Shown here: positions 15,611 to 26,320 of the stretch, piece by piece
Numbering within the stretch: position 1 is the stretch's first letter
How the letters are laid out: each line of letters opens with the position of its first letter
Source: an uncultured Chloroflexia bacterium
GTDB lineage: Bacteria > Chloroflexota > Anaerolineae > CG2-30-64-16
Reading direction: 5' to 3'
Length of the DNA stretch: 64,000 nt
NCBI GenBank assembly: GCA_963774265.1
Contig: CAVZDU010000001.1
Span: forward strand, 192,001 to 256,000
Notes under the pieces: generated by a model
Databases searched by the model: none
The model's input: the letters and a program-made list of their open reading frames with translations, nothing else
What the model was told of the DNA's origin: nothing
Program-made: the position numbers and the translations under genes

Positions 15611-16743
15611 CTATAGCCACTTCCGATACACGCGATACCGTTTGTAAATCCGGCACCCTAGGTGCGCGGCCAGCTCCGGCGTGCGCGGGTTGTCGTCGGA
15701 CGTCAGCGACAGATCGGCCCAGCGGTAACCCCTGGCGGTCGCGCGGCGCGCCATCTCGTCGAAGAGCAGCACGGCCACCCCCGTGTCCCAGTGTTCAGGC
15801 AGCACCAGCACGCTCTTGATGGCGATGCACGCGACCGGCCGGCGCAGGCGCCACAGGAGCGGCAGGTATTGCCACGGATAGCGCAGCCCGCCGGCATGGA
15901 TGAAGGCCTCGTTGAGGTTCGGGATGCCGGGAAACCAGCCCACCGCTTCACCCCCGGTTGTCTCGGCAAACAGGATGAGCTCCGGGTCGGCGATCTCCTT
16001 GAATGGCGCCAGCAGCGCGTCCAGGGCCGACCGCTCCCACGGGATGAAGCCGGGGAGGTGCGCCAGGCACCGGTTCATCAGCGTAAGGATCCGCCCGGTC
16101 TCCTCCTCCCAGTTCGCCAGGTCGGCCCTGCGCACGCGGTAGCGGCCGCGGCCGCGCACCCGCTCGGCCAGCCGGGCCAGCCGCTGCATAGGAGGCGTCG
16201 CCAGGTCCAGGTCGATCGCGAACGCCAGGTTATCCCCCGCGCGGGCTCGAAACCGCACGACTCGAAGAACCCCTGGTAGTAGGGAGGCGTGTGGCCGCAC
16301 AGGATGGCCGGCGGCCGGTCGCGGCCCTCGATCAGCACGCCATACGCATCCTCGTAGTCCAGGTTGAACGGGCCGTGCAGGGCGTCGAGCTTGCGGCCCC
16401 GCGCCCACGCCGTGGCATGGTCGAACAGCGCCCGCGCCACCGTCTCGTCCTCCACGCACTCGAAGAAACCGATGACCGCGTCCTTCCACGGATGCGCCGC
16501 GTGGCTGGCCCGATCCTCCGCGCAGCAGATCGTGCCCACCGGCTCGCGGCCCCGCCAGGCGATGAAAAACTCGGCATCACCCCGCTCGAACCATGCCCCG
16601 CGGCGCGGGTCGATCACCTTCTCCCGCTCGGGCAGCAGCGGCGGTACCCAAAGGGGATCGCCGCGGTAAATCCGCCACGGAAAAGTGAGAAACGTGCGCC
16701 GCTCCCGCGCGCTCGCCACCGGCCGTATTACAACCTCACTCAT
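15611..16743 (-). CDS. Double-GNAT protein (YghO-like), apparent frameshift near 16240
   Basis: FLTFPWRIYRGDPLWVPPL, IGFFEC, GPFN, GIPNLN, ADLSLTSDDN, IYKRYRVY. Confidence 0.8.
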
Positions 16744-18093
16744 GATGACGAAGCCTTGCGCCGCGACTCCAGCTCCGCCGCGATCTCCGAATACCCTTCG
16801 CGGCCCAGGGGATACACCAGCGCGAAGAGGATCCCGGCGCAGAGCAGGACCGCGGGAATGGGCCCCGCGACGATGCGGATGCCCAGCAGCGCGGCGTCCG
16901 GCTGGACGGCATTGGCCGCGTTGTAACCGGTGAACTTGAGCACCAGCAGCGCCAGCGGCACCGCGACCGAGCTGGCGATCTTCTGCGCCAGCGTGACCAG
17001 GCTGTAGAACATCCCCTCGTGGCGCTCGCCGGTCCGGTATTCGCCCCACTCGATCGCGTCGGGGATGATCGACCAGGGCAGGACGTGCGCGGCCGAGACG
17101 CCGATGCCGGCCAGCACGCACAGCGTGATAATGATGGGCAGGCCGGCCCCCGCGCCGACCGCGGCCAGGACGATCTGCACGACGGCCCAGAACGAAATAC
17201 CAGCGATGTAGGCCAGCCGCTTGTTCAGCCGCCGCGAGGCCCACTGCCACAGCGGCAGCGCACAGATAGCCACCACGAAGATCGTCCCCATGATCATGTC
17301 GCTCTGCGCCTCGCGCCGGAGCACATATTTAATGAAGAACAAGAGGATCGTCTGCAGGATGTCCATTGCCATCCAGGTGAACAGGTAGATGCCGGCGCTG
17401 AAGAGAAAGGGCCGGTTGCCGAGCGCCGCCCGGACCGAGTCCTTCAGGCCCGGCTGCGCCTGCTGCATCAGCTCCGGCCGCTTCGCGCGTGGTGAAAAAG
17501 ACCAGCAGCAGTGGGAGCGCGGATGCCAGGCCGAACGCGACCGCCATCAGCAGCACCCGGCCCGCGTTCTCCGGCCGGAAGCTGCCGACGATCATCAGCG
17601 GGACGGTGAACGCGACCAGGCTGCCCGCGATCGAGAAGAACATGCGGGTGGCGGTGAGGCTGGTGCGCTCGTCGTAATCGGGGGTGAGTTCGGGCGTGAG
17701 CGCGAAGTAAGGCATGTAGACGAAGGTGGCCGCGATGTCGAAAAACACATAGGCGGCCGCGTAATAGATGGCCAGGCCCAGGTCCCCCTGCAGCGGGGGG
17801 CGCCACCACAGCAGCATGAACGCCAGCGCAAACGGCAGGCTGCCGAACAGCAGGAACGGCCGGCGCCGGCCCCAGCGCGTGCGCGTACGGTCCGAGATGT
17901 AACCGATCAGGGGGTCGTTGATATAGTCCGACGAGCGGCCGATAAAGATGGCCGCGGCCGCGATCGCCGGATCGACGCGCACCACATCGGTGAGAAAGAT
18001 GGCGAAGTAGGCACTGACGATGGTCAGGGTCAGGCTGAAACCGGTGTCGCCTGAGCCGTAGATCCAGCGCTGCGAGCGCGAGAGTCTTTGCAT
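16740..18093 (-). CDS. MFS transporter of the GPH (MelB-like) family, apparent frameshift near 17480
   Basis: YGSGD, DPLIGYISDRTRTRWGRRRPF, PYFALTPELTPDYDER, GERHEGMFYS. Confidence 0.85.
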
Positions 18094-18202
18094 GGCGCGC
18101 CTCAAAACCGGGGATAAACGCGTAACAAATGGCTTGCGCGGTATGGTAAGTCACAAGACGAAGGAGCACAACTTGAGGCCGGTCCAAAGTCACTTCGTCA
18201 CG

Positions 18203-18231
18203 TTGACACCATGTGGAAGTGATAGGATAAT
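18203..18231 (+). promoter_or_regulatory. Sigma70-type promoter of the redox operon
   Basis: TTGACA-17 bp-GATAAT. Confidence 0.55.
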
Positions 18232-18261
18232 TGCGCGACCAATCGCGTGGATGGAGGCCGC

Positions 18262-18510
18262 ATGCCCCTCTTCGACCTGTTCCGCCGTGACCGCGCCCGC
18301 CGGCAGGCCGCCGTGTCAGCGCAGGTCGTGCCTGAACAAGGCCGCTGCGTCCAGTGCGGCATCTGCTCGTTCTACTGCCCGATCAACATCGACGTCCGCC
18401 TGCACGCCTGGGAGGGTGCACCCGTGGTGGAAAGCTACTGCCTGACCTGTGGCGAGTGCGTTACGCGCTGTCCGCGCGGTGTCCTTCACTTCGAGCGCTC
18501 GGCGCCATAG
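18262..18510 (+). CDS. 2x[4Fe-4S] dicluster ferredoxin-like protein
   Basis: CVQCGICSFYCP and CLTCGECVTRCP; RBS GGAGG. Confidence 0.9.
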   Translation: MPLFDLFRRDRARRQAAVSAQVVPEQGRCVQCGICSFYCPINIDVRLHAWEGAPVVESYCLTCGECVTRCPRGVLHFERSAP

Positions 18511-18546
18511 AGCGCCTGCGGGCGGCGCCTCCACGAAGGAGCACCC

Positions 18547-19854
18547 ATGCCAACTCGTTACCTCATCATCGGCGCCGGCGTCGCGGCGGTGGCTGCCGCG
18601 GAAGCGATCCGCCAGGCGGATCGCAGTGGTGAGCTCACGCTGCTTTCCGACGATCCCAACGGCTACTATTCACGACCCGGACTCGCCTATTACCTGACCG
18701 GCGAGGTCAACCGGTCGCTCCTCTTCCCCTTTAAGGAAGCCGCCTGGGATCGGCTCCCCGCGCGCCGTGTGCTCGGTCGCGCCGCGAGCATCAACCCCGC
18801 GGCGCACCGCGTCACCCTGGTTGACGGCGCGACGCTCCCGTACGACCGTCTGCTCGTCGCCACTGGTGCGTCGGCCGTGCAACCTGTGCTCCCAGGCATC
18901 GATCTGCCCGAAGTGGTCAAGCTGGACAATCTGGAAGATGCGGATCGGATGATTGCGATCGCGGCCAAGGCGCGCGCCGCGGTTGTGGTGGGCGGCGGCA
19001 TCACCGCGTTGGAGATCGTGGAAGGGCTGCGCAACCGCTGCCGGCGCATCCACTATTTGCTGCGCGGGGATCGCTATTGGGGCAATGTGCTGGACGAGGA
19101 GGAATCGAAGCTGGTCATGTCACGCCTGACGCATGAAGACATCCGGCTCCACACCCGTACCGAGCTGGCCGCGATTGAAGGCACTGGCGGCCATGTCTCC
19201 GCCGTTCTGACGACGGGAGGTGAGCGCATCCCGTGTGGCATGGTGGCAGTCGCCATTGGCGTCAGCCCGCGCGCCGAACTGGCGCGCGCGGCGGGACTGC
19301 CCCTCGACCGCGGCATCCTGGTCGACCAATACCTCGCAGCAGGCCTGCCCGATGTCTTCGCGGCAGGCGACGTAGCCCAGGTGCATGACCCGCGGTCAGG
19401 CAGGGCAATCCTGGACACGCTCTGGAACTCCGCGCGCGGCCAGGGGACCGTCGCCGGCCGCAACATGACGGGCGCGAATGAGCGTTATGTGAAGACGACG
19501 GCGCTGAACGTCACCCGCCTGGCGGGCCTGACTACCACCATCATCGGGGCCGTGGGTTCGGGCCGTGATGCCGACCTGGTGGGCATCGCTCGCGGCGACA
19601 GCGAGGCGTGGCGCCAACTGGGCGACGCGCTGGTTGCCGAGGATCATCATGAGGTCAACCGCCTGCGCCTGTTGGTCGGACCTACAACGCTCGTGGGAGC
19701 AGTGGTCATGGGCGATCAGACACCCTCGCGGCCATTGCAGCGGCTGATCGCCGATGGTGTTGATATCACGCCCGTACGCAGCCGCCTGCTTGCGCCGCGC
19801 GCGCCGCTGGCCCAGATCATCACGGAGTTCGCCCATGCGACCCAGCGCGCGTGA
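18547..19854 (+). CDS. FAD-dependent NAD(P)H oxidoreductase (rubredoxin/ferredoxin reductase, NirB-N-like)
   Basis: IIGAGVAA, YYSRP, YDRLLVATGA, VVVGGGITALE, VFAAGDVAQ. Confidence 0.9.
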   Translation: MPTRYLIIGAGVAAVAAAEAIRQADRSGELTLLSDDPNGYYSRPGLAYYLTGEVNRSLLFPFKEAAWDRLPARRVLGRAASINPAAHRVTLVDGATLPYDRLLVATGASAVQPVLPGIDLPEVVKLDNLEDADRMIAIAAKARAAVVVGGGITALEIVEGLRNRCRRIHYLLRGDRYWGNVLDEEESKLVMSRLTHEDIRLHTRTELAAIEGTGGHVSAVLTTGGERIPCGMVAVAIGVSPRAELARAAGLPLDRGILVDQYLAAGLPDVFAAGDVAQVHDPRSGRAILDTLWNSARGQGTVAGRNMTGANERYVKTTALNVTRLAGLTTTIIGAVGSGRDADLVGIARGDSEAWRQLGDALVAEDHHEVNRLRLLVGPTTLVGAVVMGDQTPSRPLQRLIADGVDITPVRSRLLAPRAPLAQIITEFAHATQRA

Positions 19855-20494
19855 ATTGTGGTGGGCGCTCGCGATCATCGCAGGCGTCACGGCTGTCTAC
19901 CTGCTTGCCGTCCGCGGTCTCGGCCTCGATGCGAAATCGCGGGGCCTGCTGGGCCACGGTATCGGCATCCTTGGGTTCGTATTGATGCTGATGACGGAGA
20001 CCCTCTACTCTCTGCGCAAGCGCTCGCGACAGGCGCGCTGGGGTCGCACGGCGAACTGGCTGCGCTTTCACATCGTGACCGGCCTGGTTGGCCCGTACAT
20101 GGTGCTGCTCCACGCCGCGTGGCGTTATAACGGCCTGGCAGGGCTGGTCACGCTGATGACAATCATCGTCGTGATCAGCGGGTTTGTCGGCCGCTACATC
20201 TATACGCGGGTGCCCCGCAATGCCGACGGGCTGATGCTGGAGGCCGGAGAATTGCAGGCGCAGATCCAGGCGGCCGTCCTGGCGCTAGCTCAGGGGGATC
20301 AGTTGCAGGCGGCTGAAGTCCAACGGCTGACCGCCCGGCGTCGACTGCTTGAACGACAGGCCGCGTCCCTGGTCACCGTCCGCCGCACGATGGGCGTCTG
20401 GACCTCCGTTCATATCCCGATCGGCGTAGCACTGTTTACCGCGGCGTTCGTGCATGTGGGCGCCGCGCTCTACTACGCCACACTGCTACACTAG
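19835..20494 (+). CDS. Integral membrane protein, putative di-heme cytochrome b (ferric-reductase-like TM domain)
   Basis: About 5 hydrophobic helices; two H-x13-H pairs: HIVTGLVGPYMVLLH and HIPIGVALFTAAFVH. Confidence 0.75.
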   Translation: MRPSARELWWALAIIAGVTAVYLLAVRGLGLDAKSRGLLGHGIGILGFVLMLMTETLYSLRKRSRQARWGRTANWLRFHIVTGLVGPYMVLLHAAWRYNGLAGLVTLMTIIVVISGFVGRYIYTRVPRNADGLMLEAGELQAQIQAAVLALAQGDQLQAAEVQRLTARRRLLERQAASLVTVRRTMGVWTSVHIPIGVALFTAAFVHVGAALYYATLLH

Positions 20495-20520
20495 ACCGCA
20501 GACCGCGGCAGGCATCAACG

Positions 20521-21963
20521 ATGAACCGACGTCTCGGCTGTCTCACCGGCGGGGGCTTGCTGGCTGCCGGAGTCACGCTCGCCCTGGTGCTGGCGTTCTT
20601 CCTGGCGACCGGCGGCCGCATGTTTAGTCCAGGGCCGCTCAATGTGCTGGGCAATGAACCGCTCGGCCAGGTCCGCTCCCACGCGGAGACGGGCGGCCGC
20701 TGCCAGGCCTGTCACACGTCGCCCTGGTCAAGGATCACCCTGTCCGATCGCTGCCTGGCGTGCCACACATCGGTTGCCGACCAGCTGCAAACCGGCAAGG
20801 GCCTTCACGCAGGGATGCTGAGACAGGACGCCGCGATCGACTGTCGCGACTGCCACACCGAGCATCGGGGGCCAACCGGTGCGCTCACCGAGATCGATGC
20901 GGCTACGTTCCCCCATGCAGCAACAGGCTATGCACTCACCGGCCATCAGAAGATGACCGACGGCCGCGCCTTCGTGTGCAGCGACTGCCACACAGGCGCC
21001 ACCTTCGAATTCGCCGTCGCCGCCTGCACCGACTGCCACCGGCAGCTCGATGCGGCGACTATGACAACCCACATTGCGGATTTCAGTGATGCCTGTCTCG
21101 GGTGTCACGACGGCGCGGACCGGTATAGCCGCAATCGTTTCGATCACAACGCGCTCGCTTTTCCGCTGCAGGGCAAGCATGCGCAAGCCGGGTGCGGCCA
21201 GTGTCATACTGGCGCGGCCACGGTCGAGGACCTGCAAGGCACGCGCAACACGTGCGTGGATTGCCACCTGAAGGACGACACGCACAAGGGACAGTTCGGG
21301 ACGGATTGCGCGGGGTGCCACAACACGACCGCCTGGCCCGACGCGACCGTCGATCATGGTCAGACGGCGTTCCCGCTGACCGGCAAACACACGGGCGTCC
21401 AGTGCCAGGACTGTCACAAAAGTGGCGTGTTCAAGGGCACGTCACAGGCGTGCATGGATTGCCACGAGAAGGACGACGCGCACAAGGGGCAGTTCGGGGG
21501 GGATTGCGCGGGGTGCCACAACACGACCGCCTGGCCCGACGCGACCTTCGATCATGGTCAGACGGCATTCCCGCTGACCGGCAAACACACGGGCATCCAG
21601 TGCCAGGACTGTCACAAAAGTGGCGTGTTCAAGGGGACCGATACAGACTGCGTTTCCTGCCATGCCGACCCCGCTTTTCACCGCGGCGTCTTCGGGACGA
21701 CGTGCGCAGACTGCCACACCGCGCTGGGCTGGACGCCGGCGACCTTCAACCTGCGCCACACTTTCCCCATCGACCACGGCGAAGAGGGACCTGCGGCGTG
21801 CCGCGCCTGTCACCCCGACAGCATCTCAGCCTACACTTGCTACGGCTGCCACGAACACAACCCGGTCGAGATCGCCGCGAAGCACGCGGAAGAGGCGCCG
21901 GGCGACATCTCGAACTGCGTGAAGTGCCACCCCACGGGGCAGAAGGAAGAGGGAGGTGATTGA
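20521..21963 (+). CDS. Multiheme cytochrome c (18 CxxCH) with N-terminal signal/anchor
   Basis: 18 CxxCH motifs counted; repeated 'FPL.GKH' spacers; N-terminal hydrophobic helix followed by FSPGPL. Confidence 0.92.
   Translation: MNRRLGCLTGGGLLAAGVTLALVLAFFLATGGRMFSPGPLNVLGNEPLGQVRSHAETGGRCQACHTSPWSRITLSDRCLACHTSVADQLQTGKGLHAGMLRQDAAIDCRDCHTEHRGPTGALTEIDAATFPHAATGYALTGHQKMTDGRAFVCSDCHTGATFEFAVAACTDCHRQLDAATMTTHIADFSDACLGCHDGADRYSRNRFDHNALAFPLQGKHAQAGCGQCHTGAATVEDLQGTRNTCVDCHLKDDTHKGQFGTDCAGCHNTTAWPDATVDHGQTAFPLTGKHTGVQCQDCHKSGVFKGTSQACMDCHEKDDAHKGQFGGDCAGCHNTTAWPDATFDHGQTAFPLTGKHTGIQCQDCHKSGVFKGTDTDCVSCHADPAFHRGVFGTTCADCHTALGWTPATFNLRHTFPIDHGEEGPAACRACHPDSISAYTCYGCHEHNPVEIAAKHAEEAPGDISNCVKCHPTGQKEEGGD
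21271..21640 (+). repeat. 198-bp near-identical internal tandem duplication (3-heme module)
   Basis: aaggacgac..cacaaggg..ttcaaggg begins at 21271 and again at 21469. Confidence 0.85.
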
Positions 21964-22070
21964 CGAGCGCTGATCGTCCCCTTCATCCCGTTGACGAGAC
22001 CCCCCGCTTGCGCTAGAATCTGGGTCAGCGTGTCAGCCAGGCGCGCCCAACTCGCGTTTACCAGGGGGAG

Positions 22071-23762
22071 ATGGCCATGCGTAAAGTTCTCACTCTCGCT
22101 TCGCTCGTGCTTGTTCTTGTCCTCGTGATCTCCGCGTGCAGCCCCGCGCCGGCGGCGACCACACCGGCCGCGGCCCCGACTGTTGCGCCCGCGCAGCCAC
22201 CTGCGACCGCTGCCCCCGGGACGAGTGCAACTGCTGAGGTGGCGCCCACGGCCGAGCCTCCACAGGCCGAGGTTGCCGCTGCTCCGCCCACCCTGCGCCT
22301 GCCCGATCTCAAGGGCCGCAAGGTGCGCGCGGTCACCGAAAACGCCTACACCCCGCTGAACTTCGTCGACCCGCTCACCGGCAAGGCAATCGGCTGGGAG
22401 TACGACGCGGTGAATGAGATTTGCCGCCGGTTGAACTGCACGGTGGAATGGGGCATCACCTCGTGGGACGCCATGATCCCCGCGGTCAAGGACGGGCAGT
22501 TCGACGTGGGCATGGACGGCATCACCATCAACGACGAGCGCAAGCAGCAGGTGGACTTCTCCGTGCCTTACATGGTGTCGCAGCAATTCATGCTAGTGCG
22601 CGCGGACGAGACCCGCTTCGCGACCGCCGCAGCGTTTGCGACCGACCCGAAGCTGCTGATTGGCTCGCAGGCGGGCACCACCAACTTTTATACCGCGGTG
22701 TACAGCGTGCTGGATGGCGACGAACAGAACCCGCGTATCAAGCTGTTCGAGACGTTCGGCGCGGCCGTGCAGGCCCTGCTGGGGGGCGATGTCGACACAG
22801 TCCTGATGGACAAAGCCTCGTCGGCGGGCTACATTGGCGCAAACCCGGACAAGCTCAAGATGCTCGACGAGGCGTTGGGGACCGAGCAGTTCGGGTTCAT
22901 CTTCACGCCCAAATCCGATCTGGTCGCGCCCTTCAACCAGGCCATCAACCAGATGAGGGCGGAAGGGTATCTCGACTATCTCAACAGCCGCTGGTTCTTC
23001 TTCACCGACCCGAACGGCGAGGATATGTATGACAAGCTGCCCGACCTGGCGGGCCGCACCGTCCGCGCGGTGACCGAGAACGCGTACACGCCACTCAACT
23101 TCGTGGATCCCGTCACGGGCAAGGCCGCGGGCTGGGAGTATGAGGTCACCGAGGAGATCTGCCGGCGCCTCAACTGCAAGGTGGAATGGGGCATCACATC
23201 GTGGGATGCGATGATCACGGCAGTGAAGGACGGCCAGTTCGACGTCGGCATGGATGGCATCACGATCACCGACGAGCGCAAAGGGCAGGTGGACTTCTCC
23301 GACCCCTATATACTATCGCAGCAGTTCATGCTGGTCCGCGCGGACGAGACCCGGTTCACCACCGCCGCGGCGTTCGCGGCAGACCCGAAGTTGTTGATTG
23401 GCTCGCAGGCGGGCACGACGAACTTCTACGTTGCCGTGTACAACGTACTGGACGGGGACGAGGCGAACCCGCGCATCAAGCTGTTCGAGACGTTCGGCGC
23501 CGCGGTGCAGGCGCTGCTGGGCGGCGATGTTGACATGGTGCTGATGGACGCTGCGTCCTCGCGCGGCTACATCGGCGCAAATCCTGACAAGCTTAAGGTG
23601 CTCGACGAGGCGTTGGGCACCGAGGAGTTCGGCTACATCTTCACGCCCAAGTCTGACCTGGTTGCACCATTCAACGCCGCCATCCAGACGTTGCAGGACG
23701 ACGGATTCCTCAACAAGATGAACATGCGCTGGTTCTACCTGTATAACGCGAGCGCGAAGTAG
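22071..23762 (+). CDS. Polar amino-acid ABC substrate-binding lipoprotein with two tandem SBP domains
   Basis: Lipobox ISAC, Pro/Ala tether, VTENAYTPLNF..GMDGITI..GSQAGTTNF occurring twice. Confidence 0.9.
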   Translation: MAMRKVLTLASLVLVLVLVISACSPAPAATTPAAAPTVAPAQPPATAAPGTSATAEVAPTAEPPQAEVAAAPPTLRLPDLKGRKVRAVTENAYTPLNFVDPLTGKAIGWEYDAVNEICRRLNCTVEWGITSWDAMIPAVKDGQFDVGMDGITINDERKQQVDFSVPYMVSQQFMLVRADETRFATAAAFATDPKLLIGSQAGTTNFYTAVYSVLDGDEQNPRIKLFETFGAAVQALLGGDVDTVLMDKASSAGYIGANPDKLKMLDEALGTEQFGFIFTPKSDLVAPFNQAINQMRAEGYLDYLNSRWFFFTDPNGEDMYDKLPDLAGRTVRAVTENAYTPLNFVDPVTGKAAGWEYEVTEEICRRLNCKVEWGITSWDAMITAVKDGQFDVGMDGITITDERKGQVDFSDPYILSQQFMLVRADETRFTTAAAFAADPKLLIGSQAGTTNFYVAVYNVLDGDEANPRIKLFETFGAAVQALLGGDVDMVLMDAASSRGYIGANPDKLKVLDEALGTEEFGYIFTPKSDLVAPFNAAIQTLQDDGFLNKMNMRWFYLYNASAK

Positions 23763-24724: not shown

Positions 24725-26320
24725 CAGCCTGTCGGGGAGTTGCCACTGTGGGACAGGCTGAATCGTGATACACTGGTCGCATGACCAGAAAATTCAAGAC
24801 GGTTGACTACGAAGCGGCTCTCGATCAGACGGTCAGTCTGCGAGAAGCGTTGCCGGCCAATCATCTGGCTCGGTTCGTGGTAGAGTTGGTGGCCCAGCTG
24901 GATTTAACCAACATCTACCAACGCTATGGAGCACACGGCGGCGAAGCCTATGCGCCGGAGATCCTGCTGGCGCTGTTGTTTTACGGCTACGCCACTGGCG
25001 TGTTCAGTTCCCGCAAGATCGAAAGGGCGACCTACGAGACGTTGCCTTTCCGGTTTGTAGCGGGCGGGCTGCATCCCGATCACGACACGCTGGCGAACTT
25101 TCGCAAGACGTTTCGGGTCGAGATCAAAGAGCTGTTCGTGCAAGTGCTGTTTCTGGCCCAGGCTACTGGCTACTTCAAGCTTGGCAACATCAGCATGGAT
25201 GGCTCCAAGGTGCATGCCAATGCTTCCAAGAGCAAGGCGATCAGCTTCAAACGGCTACTGGAACTGGAAGCCCACTTGCGGGCCGAAGTGGACCAGTTGT
25301 TCATCCTGGCTGAACAGGCGGACCGCCACGAACTGTCGGACGCCATGAATGTCGCCGACGAGATCACTTTACGACAGGAACGTCTTGAGCGGTTGGCCGA
25401 GGCCAAGAAGGTGCTGCAAGCCCGGGCGCAGGAGCGGCAGGCGGCCGAGCAGGCCGAGTACGAAGCCAAGCAACGTGAGCGCGCTGGCCAAAGCCAAGCG
25501 CTCAGGACGCAAGCCGCCGGGACGGCCGCCAACGCCGCCGTCTGGCGAGCCGCAGGACAAGGACCCGTACAACTTCACCGACCCTGAGTCGCGGATCATG
25601 AAGTGTTCCAGCAGCGCCGGGTTTGAGCAAGCCTACAACGCCCAGGTGGCAGTAGACCAGGATAGCTTGTTGATCGTCGCCTATAGCTTGTCCAACCACC
25701 CGAACGACAAAGCCGAGGCTGAACCAACTCTGGAAGCTCTGCCACCGGCCCTGGGCACGCCCGCAGCGGCGGCGCTGGACAACGGCTTCTGGAGCGAGAA
25801 GAATCTCGCTGCTCTGGAAAAGCGGCGCATCGAGCCTTACATCGCCACGGGCCGCGAGCCGCATCACAAGAGTTGGCAAGAGCGCTTCACCGCCGAGCCC
25901 GAGCCGCCAGCGGAGGATGCCAGCCCGCAGGTCAAGATGGCCTACAGGCTGCGTACTGAGATCGGCCAGGCGATCTACCGCTTACGCAAATGCACCGTCG
26001 AGCCGGTGATTGGCATCATCAAAGCGGTGCTCGGCTTCCGCCAGTTCTCGTTACGCGGCCTCAACGCCGCCGATAGCGAATGGGCCCTGGTCTGTTTGGC
26101 CTTTAACCTGAAGCGCATGCATACGTTGAGCTTGGCCTAACCGCGCCCAGCGCATGCTGGAGGCGGCTCGATGCAGCGCCGCCCGCCTGAGTTTGGGATG
26201 TTAAGGATCATTTTCGATACTCGCCTGCCGGAGACCGTCACTACCAGCCGCTAACGTTAGCCCTTTGGGCTTACCGTACCGGCTGTTAGCCAGCCAATAA
26301 CGCTCCTCTCCGACAGGCTG
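24725..26320 (+). mobile_element. IS1182-family element with CTAG target duplication
   Basis: Terminal IR CAGCCTGTCGG(G/A)GAG at both ends; CTAG at 24721-24 and 26321-24. Confidence 0.9.
24781..26140 (+). CDS. IS1182 transposase, apparent frameshift near 25480
   Basis: YGYATGVFSSRKIE, PDHDTLANFR, DGSKVHANAS, TDPESRIM, YNAQVAVD, RKCTVEPVIG. Confidence 0.9.

Follow-up and report, generated by a model that had tools for sequence, protein, structure and literature searches.

A conserved four-gene locus of Chloroflexota encoding a ferredoxin, a flavoprotein, a candidate dihaem cytochrome b and an 18-haem cytochrome c

A 64,000-nucleotide stretch of DNA from an uncultured Chloroflexia bacterium (assembly GCA_963774265.1, contig CAVZDU010000001.1, positions 192,001 to 256,000; hereafter the window) carries a compact cassette of four genes. 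Their products are a small 2x[4Fe-4S] ferredoxin, an FAD/NAD(P)H flavoprotein, a membrane protein with four invariant histidines and a cytochrome with 18 c-type haem motifs. The cassette is real, conserved and apparently undescribed; its parts are of known kinds, and their arrangement is new among transmembrane dihaem electron conduits. We consider it moderately likely that the four proteins form one complex, acting as an outward, quinone-independent wire that takes electrons from NAD(P)H across the cytoplasmic membrane. An initial annotation of the window had proposed a self-contained wire of this kind, running from cytoplasmic NAD(P)H and ferredoxin through a dihaem-b protein to a chain of c haems, and the proposal is supported by gene synteny, by the invariant histidines, by remote homology to haem-b proteins and by a docking model of the cytoplasmic partners.

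The four-gene cassette and its conservation

All four reading frames lie on the forward strand (Table 1), with intergenic spacings of 36 nucleotides (nt), -20 nt and 26 nt, the negative value being a 20-nt overlap of the flavoprotein and membrane-protein genes. This agrees with the layout first described, of a promoter and four closely spaced or overlapping genes, the promoter being a consensus match only. Two promoter-like sites were observed between positions 17900 and 22300, against 0.5 expected from shuffled sequence, the second of them lying 3' of the cassette; no terminator-like site was found. As the initial annotation had also stated, the cassette contains no porin, NapC/CymA-type or NrfD gene; NrfD genes are present elsewhere in the genome. 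The features of the locus are far beyond chance; the 18 haem motifs, the eight ferredoxin cysteines and the four histidines are all conserved across relatives. The flanking genes bear no relation to the cassette: a gene of the MFS_2 family lies upstream, and downstream come the genes of a double SBP_bac_3 protein and of its permease, which make up an amino-acid ABC system, and then an insertion sequence.

Table 1. Features of the cassette, in window coordinates (aa, amino acids)
Feature	Positions	Strand	Basis
Sigma-70-like promoter candidate, TTGACA-17-GATAAT	18203-18231	+	11/12 consensus match only
Small 2x[4Fe-4S] ferredoxin, 82 aa	18262-18510	+	two CxxCxxCxxxC motifs, Fer4 families
FAD/NAD(P)H flavoprotein, Pyr_redox_2 (ferredoxin/rubredoxin-reductase, AorC/PadH-like) type, 435 aa	18547-19854	+	Pfam profile
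Five-helix membrane protein, 219 aa, candidate dihaem cytochrome b	19835-20494	+	invariant His, AlphaFold2 model, remote family matches
18-haem c-type cytochrome, 480 aa, with a single hydrophobic helix at the N-terminus (signal anchor or signal peptide) and c7/c3-like units	20521-21963	+	motifs, Pfam
Second promoter-like site, 3' of the cassette	21991-22019		

Relatives of the membrane protein are numerous and nearly all unnamed: at least 3701 were found at E <= 1e-3 among 8000 candidates scored from a 90%-clustered collection, and 1.84 billion representatives at 50% identity include 2467 relatives at E <= 1e-3, 1000 at 1e-10 and 93 at 1e-30. Matches in the ESM Atlas were to unnamed clusters only (best score 0.91), with Pseudomonadota the commonest source. 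In a set holding one genome per species, 550 stretches encode a relative. Synteny was counted in the best 80 of these 550 loci, using tblastn with the four proteins of the study locus. All 80 come from metagenome-assembled genomes of Chloroflexota, including Ca. Amarolinea aalborgensis (L045) and Ca. Aquidulcis (L024).

The four genes lie together on a single strand in 69 of the 80 loci, with divergence down to about 45% identity, which bears out the four-gene synteny across Chloroflexota that the initial annotation had proposed to survey. Two-thirds of these loci (46 of 69) have the order seen here, ferredoxin, flavoprotein, membrane protein and cytochrome, with a median span of 3.8 kb. The cytochrome gene comes first in 16 and lies between the ferredoxin and flavoprotein genes in five, and two loci have other orders. 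In nine of the 11 incomplete loci the contig stops on the side on which the absent gene would lie. Locus L051 has no cytochrome in the 5.6 kb downstream, and L077 lacks the ferredoxin and flavoprotein within 6 kb on either side. Clustering of the open reading frames (ORFs) of the 80 loci gave no fifth widely shared gene. Subsets of loci have as neighbours an ECF-type sigma factor (13 loci), a DUF5666/DUF5667 protein (13), a response regulator (11) or an unnamed 298-aa protein (18).

Among 401 genomes sampled from the phylum, 57 had a match to the membrane protein at E <= 1e-10, 23 of a close type (E < 1e-40) and 34 of a distant type. We took 14 loci from this sample, four close and ten distant (L082-L091). 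Each of the four close-type loci carries the four genes in the same order as the window. The ten distant-type loci all encode, in this order, a 612-aa Pyr_redox_2 protein that has a long extension at its C-terminus, a protein of about 100 residues with two CxxCxxCxxxC motifs, and a four-histidine membrane protein of 320-350 aa that is about 30% identical to ours; no ORF with two or more CxxCH motifs was present within about 7 kb in any of them. Examples are L086:6634-9788 (-) and L083:4829-7961 (+). The three-gene variant is flanked by genes of small unnamed exported and membrane proteins. Because all ten distant loci keep the core in the absence of a CxxCH protein, the three-gene core is the conserved unit, with cytochrome c as one possible outer partner. 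That the core occurs free of cytochrome also makes the connection of the membrane protein with the cytoplasmic pair more secure.

The membrane protein, its cytoplasmic partners and the cytochrome

Relatives of the membrane protein share the start methionine at 19835, where GGAG lies upstream of the ATG. The initial annotation had described two helices each bearing an H-x13-H pair, and both pairs are present, as His79/His93 and His193/His207. These four histidines are invariant in 53 sequences with identities down to 28%; a lack of such conservation would, according to the initial annotation, have refuted its proposal. Tyr58, Lys62, Gly86, Gly100, Gly116 and Pro127 are also invariant in the same alignment; His41 is invariant among close relatives only. 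The AlphaFold2 model is of high quality, with a predicted local distance difference test score (pLDDT) of 93.3 and a predicted template-modelling score (pTM) of 0.85. It predicts helices at residues 6-29, 38-63, 72-93, 100-124, 137-152 and 159-216, giving five membrane helices, and places the histidine pairs on helices 72-93 and 159-216. Lys and Arg residues are concentrated in three places, the N-terminus, the loop of residues 61-71 and the segment that follows helix 4, which under the positive-inside rule indicates an N-in, C-out topology. This would bring His79 and His193 close to the cytoplasmic face and the other two, His93 and His207, close to the outer one, the placement that two stacked haems require.

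Family assignment is remote. PF01292 (prokaryotic cytochrome b561) is matched by 17 of the 53 family members at E <= 0.01 (best 6e-8) and is the precomputed annotation of some database relatives; DUF4405 is matched by ten of the 53 at the same level (best 1.7e-6), and Ferric_reduct (PF01794) by one (E 5.5e-4). In the Pfam profile search the 219-aa protein itself gave no match to PF01292 or PF01794. Of the features of the ferric-reductase/NOX/MsrQ-type domains cited in the initial annotation, two His pairs spaced within the 12-14 residues typical of that superfamily do lie on two transmembrane helices, but the PF01794 profile does not match the protein significantly. Among the rows of a VIA structure search that cover the helix bundle, all below the level of about Z 13 that is informative for helical bundles, the proteins are dihaem ones. 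They comprise CybB (5oc0_A; Z 9.1, root-mean-square deviation 3.7, 132 residues aligned, 15% identity), the designed two-haem protein 4D2 (7ah0_A; Z 8.9), STEAP1 (6y9b_C; Z 8.7, root-mean-square deviation 4.5, and with 152 residues the longest structural alignment), cytochrome b561 (4o6y_A; Z 8.5) and Dcytb (5zlg_A; Z 8.3). The part of PMC11334425 available to us reports the purification of one DUF4405 protein, shows that it binds haem b, and groups DUF4405 with MsrQ-like, PepSY-like and FezC cytochromes. The membrane protein is thus probably a cytochrome b with two haems, remotely related to the other members of the dihaem cytochrome b clan. Membership of the NOX/ferric-reductase/MsrQ family is not established, and the Pfam signal points instead to cytochrome b561 and DUF4405.

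A search of PDB sequences with the membrane-family profile was discarded, as it returned only coiled-coil noise (for example haemagglutinin HA2 and ATP synthase b). Five relatives (P0127, P0129, P0131, P0142 and P0144) have an N-terminal extension of 60-130 residues with CxxC...CxxC zinc-ribbon-like motifs, and two of these have in addition a GYF-like stretch. The long relatives P0203, P0126 and P0185 were considered as natural fusions and rejected, since they look like frameshift read-throughs of neighbouring genes.

The two cytoplasmic proteins are as the initial annotation had named them, a 2x[4Fe-4S] protein and an FAD/NAD(P)H oxidoreductase. The ferredoxin has two CxxCxxCxxxC motifs, each followed by Pro, and matches Fer4 families in Pfam (best E 1.2e-8), as expected of a bacterial-type 2x[4Fe-4S] ferredoxin; all eight cysteines and both prolines are invariant in 49 sequences. 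Its ATG at 18262 is preceded by GGAGG 4 nt upstream and is thus the likely start, an alternative GTG lying at 18247. The flavoprotein matches Pyr_redox_2 above the cut-off (E 2.4e-49) and Pyr_redox (E 9.6e-13). An FAD motif GxGxxA (Gly9, Gly11) and a second dinucleotide motif GGGITALE (Gly149-Glu156) are invariant, and an AAGD motif is conserved, in 49 sequences; the protein has no N-terminal redox-active Cys pair. Arg173, where the second beta-strand ends, hints at NADPH and not NADH as the substrate. The dinucleotide motifs and the profile match identify it as a Pyr_redox_2 flavoprotein like AorC and PadH. Its top NCBIfam match is PadH (NF045765; 171.4 bits, E 2.8e-50), far below the equivalog cut-off of 475 bits, and its closest solved relative is AorC (8c0z_E, E 9.8e-62). 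According to the available portion of bioRxiv 10.1101/2023.01.23.525143, AorC is the FAD subunit of the Aromatoleum aldehyde oxidoreductase AorABC; its FAD lies 9.5 Å from a [4Fe-4S] cluster of the ferredoxin-like AorA, and it exchanges electrons both with the clusters of that subunit and with NAD. The AorC-AorA arrangement is thus a structural precedent for a flavoprotein of this kind acting on a bound 2x[4Fe-4S] protein.

The multimer modelling that the initial annotation had suggested was run with three chains, the flavoprotein, ferredoxin and membrane protein, using custom alignments and scoring the membrane protein. The predicted complex reached a median score of 0.66, compared with 0.26 for the best of three controls, and docks the ferredoxin on the cytoplasmic loops of the membrane protein. 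Model runs had at least 78% of contacts in common, with a partner pLDDT of at least 73. On the ferredoxin the confidently modelled contacts are residues 37-42, 56-62, 65 and 69, including the invariant Cys39, Pro40, Cys60, Leu61, Thr62, Glu65 and Arg69; on the membrane protein they are residues 62, 65-68, 71-76, 119-120, 124-128 and 187, including the invariant Lys62 and Pro127. Residues 51-55 and 58 of the flavoprotein are predicted to contact residues 65-68 of the membrane protein. The contact loops in the model coincide with the predicted cytoplasmic loops and come within three residues of His79. The model supports the binding of ferredoxin and flavoprotein to the membrane protein on its cytoplasmic face, beside His79.

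The cytochrome, described initially as an exported or anchored protein with 18 CxxCH motifs, has exactly 18 of them and a single N-terminal helix (residues 10-29); its sequence contains no CxxxCH, CxxxxCH or CxxCK. Cytochrome_C7 (E 7.7e-24, in seven stretches) and Cytochrom_c3_2 (E 6e-21) both match above the cut-off, and with the CxxCH motifs they identify a multihaem cytochrome of the c7/c3 type. In 25 relatives, 17 of the 18 motifs show no variation at all, while the remaining one keeps its His in at least 90%; a further 13 histidines are invariant and two nearly so. Most of the haems are probably bis-His and form a wire rather than a catalytic site, because the sequence has 37 histidines in total for 18 haems. 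A juxtamembrane motif (Gly31, Phe35, Pro37, Gly38, Leu40 and Asn41) is conserved in the same 25 relatives.

Haem numbers of the cassette cytochromes in 74 loci are mostly multiples of three (12, 15, 18, 21, 24, 33, 36 and 42), with 18 the mode, which fits tandem trihaem c7-like units. In the cytochrome of the window, residues ~245-310 and ~311-376 form two near-identical trihaem units of 66 residues. The sequences suggest that these cytochromes grew and shrank through duplication of units. NCBIfam cut-offs were missed for HmcA (28.1 against 400 bits), DmsE (21 against 192) and nanowire_3heme (14.9 against 40; E 0.023), and among PDB sequences no solved multihaem chain matched significantly, the closest being a weak c3 match at E 0.005. 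An AlphaFold2 model of the cytochrome (pLDDT 63.5, pTM 0.38) was too poor to give shape or length; the best Foldseek match to it, the 16-haem HmcA, had E 1.1 and a TM of 0.08.

Gly6 and Cys7 of the cytochrome, on the cytoplasmic side of the N-terminal helix (residues 1-8, region 20521-20545), are invariant in the 25 relatives. A lipobox was considered for this pair and rejected, as no hydrophobic stretch precedes it. The two residues possibly contact the membrane protein or the ferredoxin.

Proposed electron path and its alternatives

In the path that we propose, a hydride would pass from NAD(P)H to the FAD of the flavoprotein, which would deliver single electrons to the two [4Fe-4S] clusters of a ferredoxin seated on the positively charged cytoplasmic loops of the membrane protein. 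Two b haems, the inner one ligated by His79 and His193 and the outer one by His93 and His207, would then carry the electrons through the membrane to the 18-haem cytochrome c, whose N-terminal helix would hold it at the outer face. From there they could pass to an external acceptor such as Fe(III) or Mn(IV) minerals, humics, oxygen, other cytochromes or partner cells. The haem binding, the order of the carriers, the outward direction and the physiological acceptor are what we infer; the direction follows from NAD(P)H being a strong reductant (about -320 mV) and from an inside-negative membrane potential, which helps electrons out.

Several observations weigh against this proposal. Each exported electron costs membrane potential, as in NADPH oxidases, and the benefit to the cell is not obvious. 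Ferredoxins of the 2x[4Fe-4S] type usually have a lower potential than NAD(P)H, which would make one outward step uphill, and AorC and PadH, the closest characterised relatives of the flavoprotein, physiologically reduce NAD+. The genome also encodes complex I, two NrfD-type proteins and a haem-copper oxidase, so the route is not obligatory and the cassette would be an extra outlet and not the sole one. The haem-b assignment is itself remote. The only Pfam match of the 219-aa protein is to DUF4405 (PF14358), at E 0.0014-0.0019 and 19.1-19.5 bits, covering the last helix only and short of the gathering score of 26.7 bits. The ferric-reductase, MsrQ or cytochrome b fold for which the initial annotation had proposed a Foldseek search did not appear, as the model of the 19835-20494 protein had no match in the PDB at E <= 0.001. 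BAR domains and ABC transporters headed the result, because of the long helical hairpin in the model, and DUOX1, at E 1.9, lay within helical-bundle noise. The VIA scores of Z 8-9 fall within the range of unrelated bundles (below about 13), and coiled coils that match the hairpin score Z 9-10. As for the docking, the mark on the score scale is reached by 58 of 80 solved complexes and two of 110 mismatched pairs, a calibration that is only approximate for a model with three chains and custom alignments, unlike the calibration set; and the control with the flavoprotein swapped out still scored 0.26.

The same complex might instead carry electrons inwards. Reduced shuttles, a partner cell or a mineral acting like a cathode would donate them, they would reach the ferredoxin by way of the cytochrome c and the b haems, and the flavoprotein would use them to reduce NAD(P)+. 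Such flow would build and not dissipate membrane potential. It would suit the AorC and PadH relatives, which move electrons from [4Fe-4S] clusters to NAD+ (for AorC, the available portion of bioRxiv 10.1101/2023.01.23.525143), and the cultured Chloroflexota Ardenticatena maritima gives both anodic and cathodic current, according to the accessible part of PMC5808234. General thermodynamics is unfavourable, however: electrons would have to be pushed against the membrane potential to an acceptor at -320 mV, which calls for a donor potential far below that of most natural extracellular donors. Nor did neighbourhood clustering of the 80 loci place any hydrogenase or formate dehydrogenase gene in the conserved set, and we regard inward flow as quite unlikely. 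A coupling to quinones is also unlikely. Here the membrane protein would be a quinol:cytochrome c oxidoreductase or a cytochrome c:quinone reductase in the manner of CymA, CbcL or ImcH, exchanging electrons between menaquinone and the 18-haem protein, with the ferredoxin and flavoprotein as accessories or as an alternative input. PF01292, the strongest Pfam signal of the family (17 of 53 members), includes CybB and the b subunits of hydrogenases and formate dehydrogenases, which react with quinones; CybB, the top match to the bundle, is a superoxide:ubiquinone oxidoreductase; and complex I in the genome makes a quinone pool presumable. Yet genes for the flavoprotein and ferredoxin accompany the membrane-protein gene in nearly all of the 80 loci (the single clear exception being L077) and in all ten cytochrome-c-free distant relatives, a finding that weakens the case for the membrane protein as a mere quinol oxidase for cytochromes, and the model docks both proteins on its cytoplasmic face.

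A shared operon without a common wire, in which, for example, the ferredoxin and flavoprotein serve a cytoplasmic reaction and the membrane protein and cytochrome an unrelated one, seems highly improbable to us. Operon sharing alone is no proof of contact, and the position of the cytochrome gene varies (upstream in 17 of the 69 loci, and between ferredoxin and flavoprotein in five). But 69 of the 80 loci keep all four genes side by side, at identities as low as about 45%, those of the flavoprotein and membrane protein overlap by 20 nt, and the complex model stood up to its controls, invariant residues making the contacts.

Beyond the outward wire proposed for the window, we tentatively extend the proposal to a family. 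The flavoprotein, ferredoxin and four-histidine protein might together be a hitherto undescribed family that exports electrons from NAD(P)H across the membrane without quinones. It would be the bacterial counterpart of NOX in split form, and older than its link to cytochrome c. In Anaerolineae-type Chloroflexota it would have become coupled to modular trihaem-repeat cytochromes of 12-42 haems, and could there be the main route that charges the extracellular cytochromes of these abundant monoderms.

Relation to known systems and genomic setting

The initial annotation had not recognised the cassette as a named system, and we found no description of it in the literature searched, though supplementary tables of Chloroflexi papers might list the genes without comment. 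The proposed wire would work like the NOX, FRE and STEAP proteins and MsrQ-Fre, in which cytoplasmic NAD(P)H and flavin feed electrons outwards across the membrane through two stacked b haems, held by two His pairs spaced 13 residues apart on two helices. NOX and ferric reductases have six helices, whereas the cassette membrane protein has five; their FNR-type flavin domain is fused, whereas the flavoprotein here is a separate Pyr_redox_2 enzyme; and the cassette inserts a 2x[4Fe-4S] ferredoxin between flavin and haem, with an 18-haem cytochrome c as acceptor. The DUF4405, MsrQ-like, PepSY-like and FezC proteins are likewise small membrane proteins with four central conserved histidines and are proposed transmembrane electron carriers, but in the available part of PMC11334425 they are described with six helices and are connected with flavinylation by ApbE and with flavoproteins outside the cytoplasm. 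That group is not tied to multihaem cytochromes or to a pair of ferredoxin and flavoprotein, and no ApbE was found among the conserved neighbour clusters of the 80 loci that were scanned against Pfam. The prokaryotic cytochrome b561 family (E. coli superoxide oxidase CybB, 5oc0) has a dihaem four-helix core and gives the strongest signal among relatives; the cassette protein differs in placing two histidines on one helix and two on another. Known members of the cytochrome b561 family are quinone-reactive and are not known to have a docked ferredoxin.

AorABC and PadEFGHI also pair an FAD subunit with a ferredoxin-like subunit, but they are soluble and reduce NAD+; the cassette has no tungsten or thiamine catalytic subunit, and the partner of its flavoprotein is a candidate membrane cytochrome b. 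The Tmc, Hmc and DsrMK complexes of sulfate reducers combine an outer multihaem cytochrome c, a membrane haem subunit and a cytoplasmic iron-sulfur protein docked on that subunit. Their membrane subunits are of the NarI or NrfD type and their iron-sulfur proteins are HdrD-like CCG proteins, and CymA, CbcL and ImcH of metal reducers are quinol oxidases, from which the cassette differs by an NAD(P)H input of its own; none of these systems is known to have an NAD(P)H flavoprotein. The cassette shares none of the Tmc, Hmc or DsrMK families, the cytochrome reaching 28.1 of the 400 bits required for HmcA. The cytochrome resembles the Geobacter GSU1996 nanowire cytochromes in its tandem c7-type units (Cytochrome_C7 in seven stretches), but it is probably anchored by an N-terminal helix, is encoded beside a dihaem-b candidate and falls below the nanowire_3heme cut-off.

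Known routes to extracellular acceptors are the quinol oxidases CymA, ImcH and CbcL in Gram-negative bacteria and the NADH dehydrogenase route through Ndh2 and EetAB in Listeria. Sediments, aquifers, digesters and activated sludge harbour Anaerolineae and related Chloroflexota in abundance, and the genomes of these bacteria are rich in very large multihaem cytochromes. As far as the accessible parts of bioRxiv 10.1101/2021.08.23.457424 and PMC7399161 go, extracellular electron transfer by Chloroflexi is merely inferred from such cytochromes, and no membrane route that feeds them is named. If our proposal is correct, cells with a single membrane would have another solution, in which a compact set of four genes bypasses quinones. 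The cassette would also provide a marker gene for electroactive Chloroflexota in metagenomes and a small, portable module by which cytoplasmic NAD(P)H could be wired to electrodes.

The host genome (5.5 Mb in 10 contigs, 84% complete) contains one copy of the cassette. It has 14 ORFs with at least three CxxCH motifs, of which the 18-haem protein is the largest, and matches to CcmF, CcmC and CcmH of the system I maturation pathway indicate that it can make c-type cytochromes; ResB, of system II, was not found in this 84%-complete genome. Other multihaem loci, at G000:C8:207913-210691, C8:251185-254043 and C1:1248562-1250605, hold adjacent 9- and 8-haem ORFs, a 7-haem ORF beside an NrfD-type gene and a 10-haem ORF, and these could be partners of the cassette or parallel routes.

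Some genes near the cassette and elsewhere in the genome are split. The divergent gene upstream (16740-18105, minus strand) encodes an MFS_2 sugar transporter in two overlapping ORFs that cover profile positions 1-197 and 208-426, the result of a frameshift, a pseudogene or an assembly indel. A haem-copper oxidase subunit I gene (G000:C3:106288-107567) is in five pieces in different frames with one internal TGA. The assembly may carry indel errors, and split genes need care; the four cassette genes are intact. Downstream, at 24781-26140 on the plus strand, an insertion-sequence transposase occupies two overlapping ORFs, one with the N-terminal DUF772 part and the other with the DDE_Tnp_1 part, and may be frameshifted. 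Between it and the cassette, at 22071-23762 (plus strand), lies the gene for a 563-aa solute-binding protein with two near-identical tandem SBP_bac_3 domains, and the permease gene follows it.

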